The notes under the pieces were generated by a model. It saw only the letters and a list, made by a program, of their open reading frames with translations. It was not told where the DNA came from and made no database searches. Below, piece after piece: positions 5,719-37,359 of a DNA stretch of 37,359 nucleotides; position 1 is the stretch's first letter; each line of letters starts with the position of its first letter. The position numbers and the translations under genes were made by a program. The stretch covers positions 1-37,359 of IMG/VR virus record IMGVR_UViG_2654587746_000004; one strand, given 5' to 3'. Source of the DNA: a virus. Its lineage: Duplodnaviria > Heunggongvirae > Uroviricota > Caudoviricetes.

Positions 5719-5750
5719 GTCAATATTTCCTAATCCGATTTGTTGATGCC

Positions 5751-5782
5751 GAAGCCCTGACTGTTACAGCAGTTGGGGCTTC
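5751..5782 (+). other. Imperfect long hairpin in arc-ant intergenic spacer (possible sar antisense RNA terminator / processing site)
   Basis: GAAGCCCTGACTG...CAGTTGGGGCTTC inverted repeat between arc stop and ant start; P22 has the sar antisense RNA here. Promoter not identified. Confidence 0.3.
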
Positions 5783-5786
5783 AACT

Positions 5787-31914: not shown

Positions 31915-32565
31915 ATGAAAACTCAATTGATGGGAGAGCGCATTCGCGCTCGGAGAAAAGAACTCAAGATCAGGCAGGCCGCACTTGGAAAGATGGTCGG
32001 CGTGTCTAATGTTGCCATATCTCAGTGGGAACGCTCTGAGACAGAGCCAAATGGAGAGAATCTTCTCGCCCTGGCTAATGCGTTGAAGTGTTCCCCTGAC
32101 TATCTGATGAAAGGAGAGGAAAGTCTTTCAAACATTGCCTATCACAGTAGGCATGATCCAAGAGGGTCATACCCTCTGATTAGCTGGGTGAGCGCAGGAT
32201 GCTGGATGGAAGCTGTAGAACCATATCATAAGCGTGCAATAGATAACTGGTACGATACAACCGTAGACTGTTCAGAAGATTCGTTTTGGTTGGACGTGAA
32301 GGGAGACTCAATGACGGCTCCGGCCGGTCTCAGTATCCCTGAAGGAATGATAATACTCGTCGATCCTGAAGTAGAGCCGCGTAACGGGAAACTGGTAGTT
32401 GCAAAGCTCGAAGGAGAAAACGAGGCAACTTTCAAGAAGTTAGTTATTGATGCAGGCAGGAAGTTTCTAAAACCACTTAACCCACAATATCCGATGATCG
32501 AGATCAACGGAAACTGCAAAATCATCGGCGTAGTTGTCGATGCAAAACTAGCAAACCTTCCATAA
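31915..32565 (+). CDS. c2: Prophage repressor C2 (P22-type CI; LexA-like autocleavage domain)
   Basis: 216-aa product MKTQLMGERIRARRKELKIRQAALGKMVGVSNVAISQWERSETEPNGENLLALANAL... near-identical to remembered P22 C2; C-terminal S24 peptidase-like domain. Confidence 0.95.
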   Translation: MKTQLMGERIRARRKELKIRQAALGKMVGVSNVAISQWERSETEPNGENLLALANALKCSPDYLMKGEESLSNIAYHSRHDPRGSYPLISWVSAGCWMEAVEPYHKRAIDNWYDTTVDCSEDSFWLDVKGDSMTAPAGLSIPEGMIILVDPEVEPRNGKLVVAKLEGENEATFKKLVIDAGRKFLKPLNPQYPMIEINGNCKIIGVVVDAKLANLP

Positions 32566-32878: not shown

Positions 32879-33178
32879 ATGACAGTAGTCATTACATATC
32901 TGGCTGACGATAACGCCAGAAATCGCCGCAGAGCACGCAGACAGGCTCAACGTGAACAGGCAATGCAAGAGCAGCGACTGGCACGAAAAATTGCGCTAAA
33001 GCTCTCTGGTTGCGTCAGAGCAGATAAAGCAGCATCACTCGGAAGCCTTCTCTGCAAGAAGGCAGATGAAGTCGAGCGTAAACAGAACCGTATTTACTAC
33101 CGCAAGCCACGCTGTGAAATGGGTGTGACTTGTGTTGGTCGCCAGAAAATGAAATTAGGCAGCAAACCACTTATTTGA
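32879..33178 (+). CDS. N: Antiterminator N (phage 21-like C-terminal region, Arg-rich N-terminus)
   Basis: 99-aa product; ...ARKIALKLSGCVRADKAASLGSLLCKKADEVERKQNRIYYRKPRCEMGVTCVGRQKMKLGSKPLI resembles remembered phage 21 N; N-terminal Arg-rich motif NARNRRRARRQAQREQ; first gene after pL/nutL. Confidence 0.85.
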   Translation: MTVVITYLADDNARNRRRARRQAQREQAMQEQRLARKIALKLSGCVRADKAASLGSLLCKKADEVERKQNRIYYRKPRCEMGVTCVGRQKMKLGSKPLI

Positions 33179-33186
33179 GGTGATAT

Positions 33187-33273
33187 ATGGAAGAAGAATT
33201 TGAAGAGTTCGAAGAGCATCCGCAGGATGTGATGGAACAATACCAGGACTATCCTTATGACTACGACTATTGA
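33187..33273 (+). CDS. Putative 28-aa highly acidic Tyr-rich peptide between N and ral
   Basis: Hand-translated MEEEFEEFEEHPQDVMEQYQDYPYDYDY; starts 9 nt after N stop, overlaps ral start; not in the track. Speculative. Confidence 0.3.
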   Translation: MEEEFEEFEEHPQDVMEQYQDYPYDYDY

Positions 33274-33457
33274 TAAAAATCAATGGTGTGGACAATTCAA
33301 GCGATGCAATGGATGCAAGCTTCAATCGGAATGCATGGTTAAGCCTGAAGAAATGTTCCCTGTAATGGAGGATGGGAAATATGTCGATAAATGGGCAATA
33401 CGAACGACGGCAATGATTGCCAGAGAACTTGGTAAACAGAACAACAAGGCTGCCTGA
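33257..33457 (+). CDS. ral: Restriction alleviation protein Ral
   Basis: 66-aa product MTTTIDKNQWCGQFKRCNGCKLQSECMVKPEEMFPVMEDGKYVDKWAIRTTAMIARELGKQNNKAA matches remembered lambda Ral. Confidence 0.9.
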   Translation: MTTTIDKNQWCGQFKRCNGCKLQSECMVKPEEMFPVMEDGKYVDKWAIRTTAMIARELGKQNNKAA

Positions 33458-33683: not shown

Positions 33684-33854
33684 ATGCAACAGTTCGCTAT
33701 TGCAGGGGCGGCATCGGTTCGCCCTTTCAACCCGATTTTATCAGTACAGCATTCACGAAAAAACATTTTAACCGGAGCAGACTTTAAACAACCAAGAATG
33801 AAGAGTTTGCTCGAAAAGCTTTGGGATATTTTGAAACAACAAGGCCGTCCATGA
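33684..33854 (+). CDS. CIII-like protein (putative FtsH inhibitor)
   Basis: 56-aa product from ATG with AAGGAG Shine-Dalgarno; MQQFAIAG... and ...KSLLEKLWDILKQQGRP resemble the lambda CIII core (ESLLERITRKL..RLIDILNQPG); moderate similarity only. Confidence 0.55.
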   Translation: MQQFAIAGAASVRPFNPILSVQHSRKNILTGADFKQPRMKSLLEKLWDILKQQGRP

Positions 33855-34021
33855 GTTTTACAGATAAATGGTCAGACGAAGAATTCATTCGTCAGATGAA
33901 AGATTTAATCGGTAACGAAGGAGATATTCATGTCACTTGCAACCACAGTGAAGGAGAGCAAGTTACAGAGACGCATGTACACGCAGCAGGCGTTAATGTA
34001 TCGCCAGAAGGGAGATCGTGA
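33851..34021 (+). CDS. Small hypothetical protein (kil/arf position)
   Basis: 56-aa ORF MSFTDKWSDEEFIRQMKDLIGNEGDIHV...; ATG overlaps cIII-like stop (ATGA). Confidence 0.45.
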   Translation: MSFTDKWSDEEFIRQMKDLIGNEGDIHVTCNHSEGEQVTETHVHAAGVNVSPEGRS

Positions 34022-34110
34022 AGGTGTTCGCGTATTTTTAAATGCGGCAAAGACTGAAGTATTAAATCAGCGTTATTTACTTGGGCCGTGTCCATTCTGA
34101 GAACAATCAT

Positions 34111-34716
34111 ATGAGCAAAGAATTTTACGCAAGACTGGCAGCTATTCAGGAGAATCTGAACGCGCCAAAAAATCAGTACAACTCATTCGGTAAATATAAA
34201 TACAGAAGCTGCGAAGATATTCTTGAAGGCGTTAAGCCGTTACTGAATGGTCTGTTTTTATCAATCAGCGATGAAGTTGTGTTGATTGGTGATCGGTATT
34301 ACGTGAAAGCCACGGCAACTATTACCGATGGCGAAAACAGTCATACAGCAACCGCTCTTGCACGAGAGGAAGAAAGCAAGAAAGGAATGGATTCTGCACA
34401 AGTTACTGGAGCTACAAGCTCTTATGCACGCAAGTATTGCCTCAATGGTTTGTTCGGCATTGATGATGCGAAAGATGCAGATACCGACGAGCATAAACAT
34501 CAGCAGAACGCAGCAGCAAAGCAATCAAAACCATCACCTACACCTGAACAGGTTCTAAAAGCATTCACTGACGCAGCATTGCAGAAAAACACCGTGGAAG
34601 AGCTTAAACAGGCGTTCGCCAAAGCGTGGAAGATGCTCGAAGGCACACCGGAGCAGCATAAAGCGCAGGACGTTTACAACATCAGACGAGACGAATTAGA
34701 AGGAGCGGCTGCTTAA
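34111..34716 (+). CDS. erf: Erf single-strand annealing recombinase (P22-type)
   Basis: 201-aa product MSKEFYARLAAIQENLNAPKNQYNSFGKYKYRSCEDILEGVKPLLNGLFLSISDEVVLIGDRYYVKATATITDGENSH... closely matches remembered P22 Erf; the track start is a non-ATG extension. Confidence 0.92.
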   Translation: MSKEFYARLAAIQENLNAPKNQYNSFGKYKYRSCEDILEGVKPLLNGLFLSISDEVVLIGDRYYVKATATITDGENSHTATALAREEESKKGMDSAQVTGATSSYARKYCLNGLFGIDDAKDADTDEHKHQQNAAAKQSKPSPTPEQVLKAFTDAALQKNTVEELKQAFAKAWKMLEGTPEQHKAQDVYNIRRDELEGAAA

Positions 34717-35099
34717 TGGCACATTCGATTACAGTAAGACTAAACAAACCCGCAAGAGAGTTTCAGACCGGGGAAAATATCGGATTCAACATCCGTGCTG
34801 GCGTTCAGTATTACGATCGCCAGACAAAAAAGAAAGAATGGACAAACTACAGCGCCGTTGTATTTGCCAAGCCGGGAGCGCAAGCGGATTACTACCGTAG
34901 TGTTCTTGTTGAAGGTGGCATTGTGGAAATTACCGGAGAAAACATCAGGGTTGATGTTTATCAGGGGCAAAATGGTCAATCAATCACTCTTGAATTACTG
35001 AATGCAAAGATTGGATTTGCAGCTTCAGGAAATGGCACGCAGCAGCAAAGTAGTAACCAGCAGAACACTCCTGTATACGACGATTCCATCCCATTCTGA
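34716..35099 (+). CDS. Single-stranded DNA-binding protein (short single-OB-fold SSB with DIPF-type tail)
   Basis: 127-aa ORF starting on the erf stop; core aligns by eye with E. coli SSB (EWTNYSAVVFAKPG..YRSVLVEGGIVEITGE); Gln-rich linker ends ..PVYDDSIPF like SSB's ..DFDDDIPF. Confidence 0.7.
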   Translation: MAHSITVRLNKPAREFQTGENIGFNIRAGVQYYDRQTKKKEWTNYSAVVFAKPGAQADYYRSVLVEGGIVEITGENIRVDVYQGQNGQSITLELLNAKIGFAASGNGTQQQSSNQQNTPVYDDSIPF

Positions 35100-35122
35100 T
35101 TTAGAAAAATAAGGATTTAATT

Positions 35123-35416
35123 ATGCCAGCGCCTCTGTATGGTGCGGATGACCCGCGCCGCTGTTCCGGCAATTCCGTATCGGAGGTGCTGGATAAATTC
35201 AGGAAAAACTACAACCGGATAATGTCGCTACCGCAGGAAACGAAAGAGGAAAAGGAATTTCGCCATTGTATATGGCTTGCAGAGAAAGAAGAACTCGAGC
35301 GAATTTACCAGACATCAATCCGACCATTCCGCAAAGCCACATATACCCACTTCCCTGAAATTGACCCGCGCCTGCGTAATTACCGCTCACGCTATGGCGC
35401 TATCAGTAATGACTGA
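35123..35416 (+). CDS. abc2: Anti-RecBCD protein Abc2
   Basis: 97-aa product [30 protein letters not shown]... matches remembered P22 Abc2; located after erf as in P22. Confidence 0.8.
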
Positions 35417-35426
35417 GGAATTTACC

Positions 35427-35594
35427 ATGAGAGGACTTGCATACAATCCCGGCATTCTTCCGGCAGAAATGATTATTCGCCAACGCGTAAAGCCAATGCC
35501 ATCGAGAGAGGAATTGCTTAAGAGAAATAGTTTCGGTTCTGTTAATGACAACAAATATCTGAATGCGATGTGGCGTAAAGGAGGCAAGCAGTGA
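35427..35594 (+). CDS. Small hypothetical protein (possibly Abc1-position gene)
   Basis: 55-aa product [31 protein letters not shown]... with GAGGAA Shine-Dalgarno 6 nt upstream; start chosen by RBS within the longer track ORF. Confidence 0.45.
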
Positions 35595-35890
35595 GTGTCA
35601 ATCTTATTGATAAACGTCGACGTGGGCAACAAATACCACCTGTAGGAATTCCGAATCACACATGGTTTTGCGTACTTGATATCGATGGTATGGATTCGTT
35701 GGTTGACACTCGTCATTACTGCGATACCGCAACAGCTACTCCGGCGAAAGCAAAGAAAATGGCTGCTCTGATAGAAAACTGGACTCCACCTGATGGTTGG
35801 TGCAATGGGAATGATCGAAATTGGCATGAAAAAATGAAGGGCTATATCTGCGATTTCTTACGTAAATGCAACGGCTTCAGGGTGATGTGA
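35591..35890 (+). CDS. Hypothetical Cys-containing protein
   Basis: 99-aa ORF with GTG start preceded by AAGGAGG; overlaps previous stop; several Cys/Trp (..[19 protein letters not shown]..). Confidence 0.5.
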
Positions 35891-35891
35891 T

Positions 35892-36449
35892 ATGACCAAA
35901 ATTAACTATCAGGCACTGCGTGAAGCGGCAGAAAAAGCAACGTGTGGTGTGTGGTCGCTCGAATATGGAGAGGAGAGATTTGATGGTGATGATGCACTAA
36001 TTCATCGCGAGGCTGCTGGATATATTCCCATTTGCAGAATTGAAGGAGCGCATCCTGAAAGCGGTTTCGATGAAGATTTCCAAATGGAACAGCAGGCCAA
36101 TGCTGAATTCATCGCCGCAGCCAATCCGGCTACCGTCTTGGCGCTGCTGGATGAGCTGGAAACAGCAAAAAAGCGCATAGCAGAACTGAAAGCCGAACCT
36201 GTAAGCCAAACTTACAAGTTGAACCAGCTATCGGGCAACTCTCCGGTAACTCAGGATAGTTGGATAAGCTGTAGTGAGCGGATTCCCGCGCAAGATGATT
36301 GGGTTTTAATTTATTCAAAGCACGGCGAGTATATGGCAGGACAGGTACAAGGGGAATACGTGGAGTTGAGCGACGGCACTTTATCGTGGTTAGGGAACGC
36401 CTTGTTCTGGATGCCGCTACCAGAACCGCCTCGATTAAAGGAGCTATAA
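35892..36449 (+). CDS. Ead/Ea22-like protein with C-terminal DUF551 domain
   Basis: 185-aa ORF; N-terminal ..ALREAAEKATCGVW..ANAEFIAAANPATVLALLDELE.. and C-terminal ..WISCSERIPAQDDWVLIY.. pattern recalled from lambdoid ea-region proteins. Confidence 0.7.
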   Translation: MTKINYQALREAAEKATCGVWSLEYGEERFDGDDALIHREAAGYIPICRIEGAHPESGFDEDFQMEQQANAEFIAAANPATVLALLDELETAKKRIAELKAEPVSQTYKLNQLSGNSPVTQDSWISCSERIPAQDDWVLIYSKHGEYMAGQVQGEYVELSDGTLSWLGNALFWMPLPEPPRLKEL

Positions 36450-36563
36450 TAGTGAACTATTATATCTATTTGTATTAAAAGAGTTTTTATAAAATAAATC
36501 TTCCAAAGCATGTAAAAACACTGTTAATCTTAACGTGTGTGAAACGTGAAGAGAGGTGTTGAA

Positions 36564-36845
36564 ATGAGCATTCATGATTTGTGTGAAGATCAAGAGCAAT
36601 GGGCTATGCAGACCCTTATGGGATCAGGAGTTCTTGCAAGGTGCAGAATCCATAACGATGTAATTTTAGACAGCGGAAATGATGCTTCTTCTGCTTATAA
36701 ATTAGGAACTTACTTATATCAAAAAGATAATAGCTGCAACTTATTCAATACTCTTACTGAAGCCCGCGACGCAATAAAGGATGCATATGAATCGTATTGT
36801 GGGATTGATGATTGCCCACAATGCTCAAAATACATTGACGATTAA
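36564..36845 (+). CDS. Moron-encoded hypothetical protein (AT-rich, own promoter and terminators)
   Basis: 93-aa product MSIHDLCEDQEQWAMQTLMGSGV...CGIDDCPQCSKYIDD from ATG with GAGAGG Shine-Dalgarno; AT-rich promoter-like sequence upstream; low GC. Confidence 0.55.
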   Translation: MSIHDLCEDQEQWAMQTLMGSGVLARCRIHNDVILDSGNDASSAYKLGTYLYQKDNSCNLFNTLTEARDAIKDAYESYCGIDDCPQCSKYIDD

Positions 36846-36864
36846 TAATATGAACAAGTAACTA

Positions 36865-36920
36865 TCCTCGCACTCGCGGGGATTTCTTTTATCTGAACTC
36901 GCTACGGCGAGTTTTGTTTT
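36865..36920 (+). terminator. Tandem intrinsic terminators after the moron gene
   Basis: CCTCGC-ACTC-GCGGGG + ATTTCTTTT, then AACTCGC-TACG-GCGAGTT + TTGTTTT. Confidence 0.65.
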
Positions 36921-36933
36921 ATGGAGATGATAA

Positions 36934-37101
36934 ATGCACTTCCGAGTCACAGGTGAATGGAATGGAGAACCATTCAACAGAGTTATCGAAGCAGAGAACA
37001 TCAATGACTGCTATGACCACTGGATGATATGGGCGCAGATAGCACATGCAGACGTAACCAATATTCGAATTGAAGAACTGAAAGAACACCAAGCCGCCTG
37101 A
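36934..37101 (+). CDS. Small hypothetical protein
   Basis: 55-aa hand-translated MHFRVTGEWNGEPFNRVIEAENINDCYDHWMIWAQIAHADVTNIRIEELKEHQAA; GGAGA Shine-Dalgarno upstream; stop lies in the loop of a terminator hairpin. Confidence 0.5.
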   Translation: MHFRVTGEWNGEPFNRVIEAENINDCYDHWMIWAQIAHADVTNIRIEELKEHQAA

Positions 37102-37116
37102 TGGCGGTTTTTTATT
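37093..37116 (+). terminator. Rho-independent terminator upstream of xis
   Basis: CCGCC-TGAT-GGCGG followed by TTTTTTATT. Confidence 0.7.
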
Positions 37117-37123
37117 GCCTGAT

Positions 37124-37139
37124 TTGCAGGTTCGATTCC
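37124..37139. other. tRNA T-arm-like 16-mer; candidate attP core fragment
   Basis: TTGCAGGTTCGATTCC matches the T-stem/loop of an Arg tRNA (argW as remembered) but no complete cloverleaf or 3' acceptor follows; lies just upstream of the xis-int operon. Confidence 0.2.
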
Positions 37140-37158
37140 ATATTCGGAGATAGCACTC

Positions 37159-37359
37159 ATGCAACACGAACTACAGCCTGATTCACTGGTTGATTTGAAA
37201 TTCATCATGGCTGATACTGGCTTTGGTAAAACCTTCATCTATGACCGGATTAAGTCCGGCGACCTGCCTAAAGCCAAAGTTATCCACGGGCGAGCAAGAT
37301 GGTTATATCGTGACCATTGTGAATTCAAAAATAAGCTCTTAAGCCGCGCCAATGGGTAA
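37159..37359 (+). CDS. xis: AlpA-family excisionase / transcriptional regulator
   Basis: 66-aa product ..LVDLKFIMADTGFGKTFIYDRIKSGDLPKAKVIHGRARWLYRDHCEF.. typical of AlpA/Xis winged-helix proteins; directly precedes int across the window junction. Confidence 0.8.
   Translation: MQHELQPDSLVDLKFIMADTGFGKTFIYDRIKSGDLPKAKVIHGRARWLYRDHCEFKNKLLSRANG

Follow-up and report, generated by a model that had tools for sequence, protein, structure and literature searches.

Three separately exchanged accessory genes of catalogued families follow abc2 in the early-left operon of a P22-like phage

What do the genes that follow the anti-RecBCD gene abc2 in the early-left (pL) operon of a P22-like phage do? 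The question is raised by IMG/VR record IMGVR_UViG_2654587746_000004 (Duplodnaviria; Heunggongvirae; Uroviricota; Caudoviricetes), a stretch of 37,359 nucleotides that we call the window, in which three tightly packed genes span positions 35427 to 36449, all on the + strand. An initial annotation had placed them in the pL operon distal to the anti-defence genes ral and abc2, described them as lacking any known function, and proposed a part in host takeover or counter-defence. We find that the three genes are already catalogued, as unknown-function accessory genes of P22-like and lambda-like phages, and that they are separate cassettes which recombine independently and do not form one system. 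The middle gene, of family DUF7739, is a candidate small inhibitor. By analogy, a counter-defence role for genes of the cluster is plausible; that any of them has a specific role of this kind we consider doubtful.

Three real genes of catalogued families

The three open reading frames (ORFs; Table 1) are real genes, because their Pfam scores lie far above the cut-offs and the annotated frame is under purifying selection. The first product matches DUF2737 at 105.3 bits (cut-off 25), with residues 1-51 on profile positions 1-51 of 53, and the second matches DUF7739 at 69.1 bits (cut-off 27) over residues 3-93. The third combines Ead_Ea22 (84 bits, cut-off 27; residues 3-102) with DUF551 (38.8 bits, cut-off 22; residues 123-180), which is the architecture initially assigned to it. 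The PHROG matches agree with these calls, and each matching family is labelled 'unknown function'. We computed the ratio of nonsynonymous to synonymous polymorphism (pN/pS) over distinct sequences from related loci. In the annotated frame it is 0.26 for DUF2737 (49 distinct sequences), 0.30 for DUF7739 (53 distinct sequences) and 0.13 for abc2. Four of the five alternative frames gave values of about 1 or more, and the antisense frame that shares third codon positions gave 0.44 and 0.47, low as expected.

The genes are closely spaced. The abc2 stop at 35416 is followed by 10 nt that contain GAGGA and then by the ATG of the DUF2737 gene. The TGA stop of the latter (35592-35594) and the GTG start of the DUF7739 gene share four nucleotides (GTGA), with AGGAGG 7 nt upstream, whereas the DUF7739 and Ea22-like genes meet as TGA-t-ATG, with a 1-nt gap and no overlap. 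The overlapping stops and starts initially described thus exist at the first junction and not at the second, although both are tight.

At the DNA level the three genes are 94-98% identical to annotated hypothetical genes of CUS-3, Sf6 (gp23, gp22, gp21), HK75 (gp29, gp27), HK620 (hkaI, hkaH, hkaG) and many other phages. Over HK75, Sf6 and CUS-3 the overall range of identity is 92-98%. In Sf6 the order is the same and the products are 93-96% identical, for gp21 in its N-terminal part only. The operon position of the window genes is also that of the P22 'ea' region (orf56, eaE, eaF, eaD, eaI, eaA and others), of hkaG-J in HK620, of gp21-23 in Sf6 and of gp27-29 in HK75.

The DUF2737 protein has equivalents in P22 orf56 (75% identity), HK446 gp28 (96%), HK620 hkaI, Sf6 gp23 and HK75 gp29, and P22 orf56 adjoins abc2 directly, as in the window. 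Residues 1-45 are conserved, and the final eight or so vary with the downstream cassette. Matches to this gene occur in 1367 of 5426 complete Escherichia coli genomes, about a quarter. DUF7739 is found in 431 of the same genomes (~8%). The family is small: 1.84 billion proteins yield 72 representatives of it at the 50% identity level. Equivalents of the window protein include Sf6 gp22 and HK75 gp27 (98% identical), and the motifs NGTWF, TNDP, W-PP-GW and FF..C.GF are common to the window protein and distant members.

Separate cassettes with conserved coupling

The organization of the locus was followed through 80 IMG/VR loci, each picked because it contains a close homologue of DUF7739. In all 80, the DUF7739 start overlaps the stop of the upstream ORF (xTGA) and the next ORF starts 1 nt past the DUF7739 stop (TGA-n-ATG). 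This retention of coupling on both sides of the cassette, seen in every locus sampled, is a new observation. The upstream ORF, whatever its kind, ends in (R/S)(K/E)GG(K/N/S)Q in 71 of the 80 loci; unrelated proteins share this tail because the cassette boundary takes in the AAGGAGG ribosome-binding site. The variable C-terminus of DUF2737 is in line with a boundary inside the preceding gene. We also observed that upstream proteins of the DUF2737, Ea22-like and Oad2/EaE-like kinds (the last are introduced below) all end in RKGG(K/N)Q, with the mosaic boundary again inside the preceding gene.

What surrounds the cassette is much less constant. In 66 of the 80 loci the DUF7739 stop is followed, a few bases on at most, by the start of an Ea22-type gene, and the identity of this partner ranges from 33% to 94%. 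DUF2737 lies upstream in 64 loci, adjacent to DUF7739 in 33 and split from it by 0.4-1.5 kb of other genes in 31; within these 64, abc2 is adjacent in 36, 300 nt away in 13 and absent in 15. P22 has DUF2737 but no DUF7739, HK75 has xis and no Ea22-type gene after DUF7739, and in a Plesiomonas prophage and in pHCM2-like plasmids DUF7739 stands alone. Because each gene is found without the others, the three are separate cassettes. Their range extends to plasmids: the P1-like IncY plasmid NZ_CP023381.1 (91 kb) carries an Ea22-like gene, DUF7739 and a second Ea22-like gene in a row, with the same coupled junctions. DUF7739 matches 104 plasmid records, which include non-mobilizable plasmids of 91-142 kb such as NZ_CP017724.1 (106 kb), and many of these look like P1-like or pHCM2-like phage-plasmids by replicon type and size.

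Predicted folds of DUF7739 and the Ea22-like protein

A model of DUF7739 built on a 55-sequence alignment reached a predicted local distance difference test (pLDDT) score of 96.7 and a predicted template modelling score of 0.88. It describes a compact domain that begins beta-beta-alpha and ends alpha-alpha-beta. The nearest folds, at modest Z, are those of the small binder proteins DMP12 (3w1o), the immunity protein CdiI-E479 (5j4a_D) and YfbM (1ryl), on which 80-81 residues superpose at 2.9-3.6 Å. Like these proteins, DUF7739 of the window is a compact alpha/beta domain of about 100 residues; it has no profile-level sequence link to them, adjoins no toxin gene and is basic, not acidic. A profile of the 55 sequences found no link in the PDB, and a Foldseek search of the viral database BFVD returned only unnamed or uncharacterised proteins and one fragment of the family itself. 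Literature searches on DUF1877/YfbM gave nothing relevant, and Pfam scans of the neighbouring DUF2737 and Ea22-like proteins revealed no toxin domain that would suit a CdiI-like immunity function. As a modelling result the fold matches are suggestive but weak, and they hint that DUF7739 may work by binding other proteins. The protein has five Cys and four Trp, in agreement with its first description as a Cys/Trp-containing protein, though C93 is the sole Cys conserved in the family, and this rules out a metal-binding Cys motif.

The third gene is the one for which the statement that no function is known does not hold. While DUF2737 and DUF7739 do lack an assigned role in the literature, PADLOC and NCBIfam, the Ea22 family has a published phenotype: Ea22 favours lysogeny in lambda and Shiga toxin (Stx) phages (PMC7093339, PMC10834534). 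Ea22 is a tetramer composed of a short N-terminal segment, a coiled coil and a variable C-terminal domain (PMC10834534, PMC7093339). The Stx variant Ea22_V2 bears DUF551 as this C-terminal domain (PMC10834534), and the domain is also part of YfdS, encoded by the E. coli prophage CPS-53 (PMC4776307). The window protein is predicted to follow a similar plan, and like Ea22_V2 it ends in DUF551 (PMC10834534). Its MxxINxQALREAAE N-terminal segment and following predicted helix resemble those of lambda Ea22; against lambda Ea22 residues 1-81 it is 31% identical over the N-terminal 104 columns (BLASTP, E 4e-6). Its helical region is shorter than that of lambda Ea22, and its C-terminal domain is unrelated to the lambda one, a mixed alpha-beta dimer solved by nuclear magnetic resonance. 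A search of PDB sequences with the Ea22-like protein (E up to 1) gave no match, that lambda-type domain included. The gene also lies where an Ea22 is expected: after the recombination genes (erf, SSB-like gene, abc2) and before genes of the ea8.5, orf55 and xis types, as in lambda.

The AlphaFold2 model of the full-length Ea22-like protein has a mean pLDDT of 55.8, and we used its DUF551 part alone; helices are placed at 61-76 and 79-101 with pLDDT of roughly 43-59. DUF551 is modelled, with pLDDT of 80-88, as a five-strand small beta-barrel of the Tudor/Sm/SH3-like kind, a predicted fold that is new here. The Ead_Ea22-DUF551 architecture is very common, with at least 7995 related proteins, and all 120 that were listed carry both domains. 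At the DNA level some part of the gene is present in 1435 of the 5426 E. coli genomes, and at least 80% of the length of the window allele in just 16, because the gene is mosaic.

Genomic context

The window is the genome of a P22-like phage (Lederbergvirus): by megablast its right two thirds are found in Sf101, vB_EcoP-720R6 and CUS-3 (70-72% of the query covered, ~96% identity), and the + strand order cI, N, ral, erf, abc2 matches the P22-like layout. This gene order also assigns the three genes to the pL operon, distal to ral and abc2 as initially placed. From 34033 to 36863 the + strand has no predicted hairpin of the terminator type, which is consistent with a single transcript. Beyond this stretch, two such hairpins (36864-36883 and 36895-36914) come after the ea8.5-like gene and a third after the 55-aa gene. 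An Rfam scan of the three-gene region found no family, and a repeat scan found nothing notable.

From the Ea22-like gene to the right end (35892-37359) the window is the syntenic counterpart of the lambda exo-xis region (ea22-ea8.5-orf55-xis), because Ea22-like (31%), ea8.5-like (41%) and orf55 (100%) genes are followed by xis, as in lambda. On the evidence of sequence identity, the orf55-identical gene seems a sharply bounded, recently exchanged module; its flanks are only 31-41% identical to their lambda counterparts, versus 100% for the gene itself. The ea8.5-like gene is preceded by a 96-nt AT-rich spacer and has a GC content of 0.38, well below the 0.44-0.50 of its neighbours. Elsewhere, the sar antisense RNA of the P22 immI region was detected at 5720-5786 on the + strand (Rfam RF00262, 65.6 bits), which implies a second immunity region of the ant/arc/mnt type in this phage.

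One further early gene lies between erf and abc2 and encodes a 127-aa protein resembling single-stranded DNA-binding protein (SSB). It has no Pfam match and weak SSB similarity only (phrog_44; TIGR00621, E 0.036), and its last residues, YDDSIPF, form the motif of the SSB C-terminal tail. A possible role for it, as a truncated or mimic SSB, would be to compete for host proteins binding the SSB tail.

Table 1. Features of the early-left operon in the window
Feature	Position	Strand	Description
cI-type repressor	31915-32565	+	
N	32879-33178	+	
ral	33257-33457	+	98% identical to CUS-3 and Sf6 ral
Gp33 homologue	33851-34018	+	56 aa; just upstream of erf; 93-96% identical to HK446/HK75 Gp33
erf	34111-34716	+	
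SSB-like gene (Gp31 homologue)	34716-35099	+	127 aa; 95% identical to uncharacterised HK446 gp31
abc2 (anti-RecBCD)	35123-35416	+	anchor upstream of cluster; PF11043, 207 bits; phrog_656; 92% identity to P22 Abc2
DUF2737 gene	35427-35594	+	55 aa; ATG start; isoelectric point (pI) 10.7; PF10930, phrog_1117
Coupling junction	35574-35594	+	codons K-G-G-K-Q hold the AGGAGG Shine-Dalgarno site for DUF7739
DUF7739 gene	35591-35890	+	99 aa; GTG start; pI 8.7; PF24881
Ea22-like gene	35892-36449	+	185 aa; ATG start; PF13935 + PF04448
Ea22-like N-terminal segment and short helical (coiled-coil-type) region	35892-36200	+	aa 1-103; PF13935
Ea22-like C-terminal DUF551 domain	36258-36431	+	aa 123-180; PF04448
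ea8.5-like gene	36546-36845	+	PF20735, 58 bits; 41% identical to lambda Ea8.5
55-aa gene (lambda orf55, lambdap35)	36934-37101	+	100% identity over 55 aa; phrog_676
xis/TorI-like gene	37159-37359	+	

The OLD nuclease and the position after DUF2737

A July 2026 preprint bears directly on this position. It reports that the P2 OLD nuclease is bound and inhibited by HK446 gp27, a relative of P22 EaE that was named Oad2; that the Gp33 proteins of HK75 and HK446 are sufficient to trigger this abortive-infection nuclease, Gp33 being proposed as a new RecBCD inhibitor or manipulator; and that HK75 is OLD-sensitive despite carrying an Oad2 homologue (bioRxiv 10.64898/2026.07.10.737580). By annotation, Oad2 comes directly after DUF2737 in HK446, and this gives experimental backing to the region as a counter-defence hotspot. 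The order in HK75 is abc2, DUF2737, Oad2 homologue, DUF7739; since DUF7739 lies downstream of the Oad2 homologue there, the two are neighbours and not alleles. Oad2 resembles the window gene in its slot directly downstream of DUF2737, with a 4-nt overlap as coupling, and it ends in the same LRKGGNQ tail as ORFs that precede DUF7739 cassettes; it differs in having no sequence similarity to any window protein. Searches of the whole window with HK446 gp27, HK75 gp28 and P22 EaE (tblastn, E up to 0.01) gave no match. P22 differs from the window in having EaE and no DUF7739. The window phage carries the OLD trigger Gp33 but no Oad2 inhibitor.

Other searches for a defence-related identity were negative. 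PADLOC models had no match in the five proteins scanned (E up to 1), NCBIfam had none for DUF2737 or DUF7739, and comparison of the three proteins with the PDB by sequence gave nothing usable, the sole match being 4oko at E 0.26.

Alternative explanations

Could the locus be something other than three independent genes? A 146-aa ORF runs antisense through it (35387-35827), and together with the low pN/pS of the antisense frame sharing third positions it might suggest that the annotated ORFs are chance frames or mis-annotations, the true feature being this ORF or a non-coding element. The strong + strand Pfam and PHROG matches, pN/pS values that are lowest in the annotated frames, good Shine-Dalgarno sites, the high-scoring DUF7739 model and the absence of any Rfam family from the region leave this explanation with a negligible probability. 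An obligate three-component system whose products act as a complex has more in its favour, as both junctions are tightly coupled and an Ea22-type gene usually follows DUF7739, even on the P1-like IncY plasmid. Rare fusion ORFs of 153-154 aa join DUF2737 to DUF7739; we noted three, each a single-member cluster from read-archive assemblies. The fused reading departs from the two-gene one only around the stop/start overlap, and the fusions are probably assembly errors caused by one-base indels at GTGA. DUF2737 without DUF7739 in P22, DUF7739 without a following Ea22-type gene in HK75, solitary DUF7739 in Plesiomonas and the pHCM2-like plasmids, the inserts that part DUF2737 from DUF7739 in nearly half of the loci with both, and the wide range of Ea22 partner identity all argue against the complex. 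The independent occurrences rule out a single three-gene system, and we regard the obligate complex as improbable.

Two more specific proposals concern DUF7739. Its similarity in fold to Neisseria DMP12 suggests that it might mimic DNA and sequester a DNA-binding protein, be it HU or another. Proteins of that sort are acidic (DMP12 has a pI of 4.39), whereas the window protein is basic; the family does not conserve net charge, with pI values from 4.1 to 9.7. The protein shares 7% identity with DMP12, and the family has no profile-level link to any PDB entry. We therefore reject the DNA-mimic reading on charge, and give it very little probability. The other proposal gives DUF7739, alone or together with DUF2737, a dedicated counter-defence role against guards of RecBCD (OLD-family nucleases, retrons), like that of Oad2 in HK446. 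That a validated anti-OLD protein fills the slot after DUF2737 in HK446 supports it, and since the window encodes Gp33 and Abc2 but no Oad2 or EaE, a need for some inhibitor is plausible; moreover, DUF7739 is similar in fold to small proteins that act as inhibitors or in immunity, and the family is patchy across several temperate phage backbones and phage-like plasmids. On the other side, HK75 is OLD-sensitive with DUF2737 and a 98% identical DUF7739, so that these two are insufficient against P2 OLD, and DUF7739 has no sequence relation to Oad2, no PADLOC match and, at its pN/pS, no sign of diversifying selection. We judge this proposal possible but unlikely. With P2 OLD set aside, DUF7739 might be a new family of small phage-encoded protein inhibitors, acting in counter-defence or host takeover against another target, perhaps a different guard of RecBCD or of recombination status. 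It would sit on a self-contained coupled cassette, often with an Ea22-type adaptor, that moves among P22-like, HK97/HK022-like and lambda-like phages, P1-like phage-plasmids and SSU5/pHCM2-like plasmids. In this full form the suggestion is speculative, and we would not expect it to hold.

Discussion

The explanation that we favour, and consider rather probable, is the general one of three independent early accessory cassettes acting as protein binders. The segment is the form that the lambdoid early-left accessory region ('ea' in P22, exo-xis in lambda) takes in P22-like phages; transcription from pL would run into it past the recombination and anti-RecBCD genes, and it is assembled from three independently exchangeable, translationally coupled cassettes. 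DUF2737 is a very basic, strongly conserved peptide of 55 aa that usually travels with the recombination module, mostly directly after abc2. DUF7739, modelled as one compact alpha/beta domain, bears no catalytic signature; it may bind another protein, either of the host or of a competing element, and block or re-target it. In the Ea22-like protein, the swappable DUF551 beta-barrel would serve as a target-binding module, presented by the conserved N-terminal segment together with a short helical region for oligomerisation. The gene likely biases infection toward host survival and lysogeny, by analogy with Ea22 of lambda and Stx phages. All three products would thus act as stoichiometric binders and not as enzymes.

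Several observations weigh against this explanation. DUF2737 is conserved far above what is typical of arms-race proteins, and literature searches returned one incidental mention of it and no mention of DUF7739. The N-terminal 83 residues of the Ea22-like model have low confidence, and the oligomeric scaffold is drawn from the literature. Finally, homology to lambda Ea22 is N-terminal only and the C-terminal domain differs, which makes the transfer of the Ea22 phenotype uncertain.

In its present form the finding describes anew conserved hypothetical genes that were already catalogued, and its value is that of a pointer. A hotspot for triggers and inhibitors of RecBCD-guard immunity, such as Gp33 and Oad2, is coming into view in the part of the lambdoid pL operon next to the recombination genes, and within it DUF2737 and DUF7739 are abundant, cheap-to-test candidates. 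Concrete starting points for experiments are the high-confidence model of DUF7739 and the conserved junctions of the cassette. If DUF2737 or DUF7739 prove to be inhibitors, the anti-defence catalogue would gain one more family; otherwise a bias toward lysogeny of the Ea22 type would stay the default explanation.
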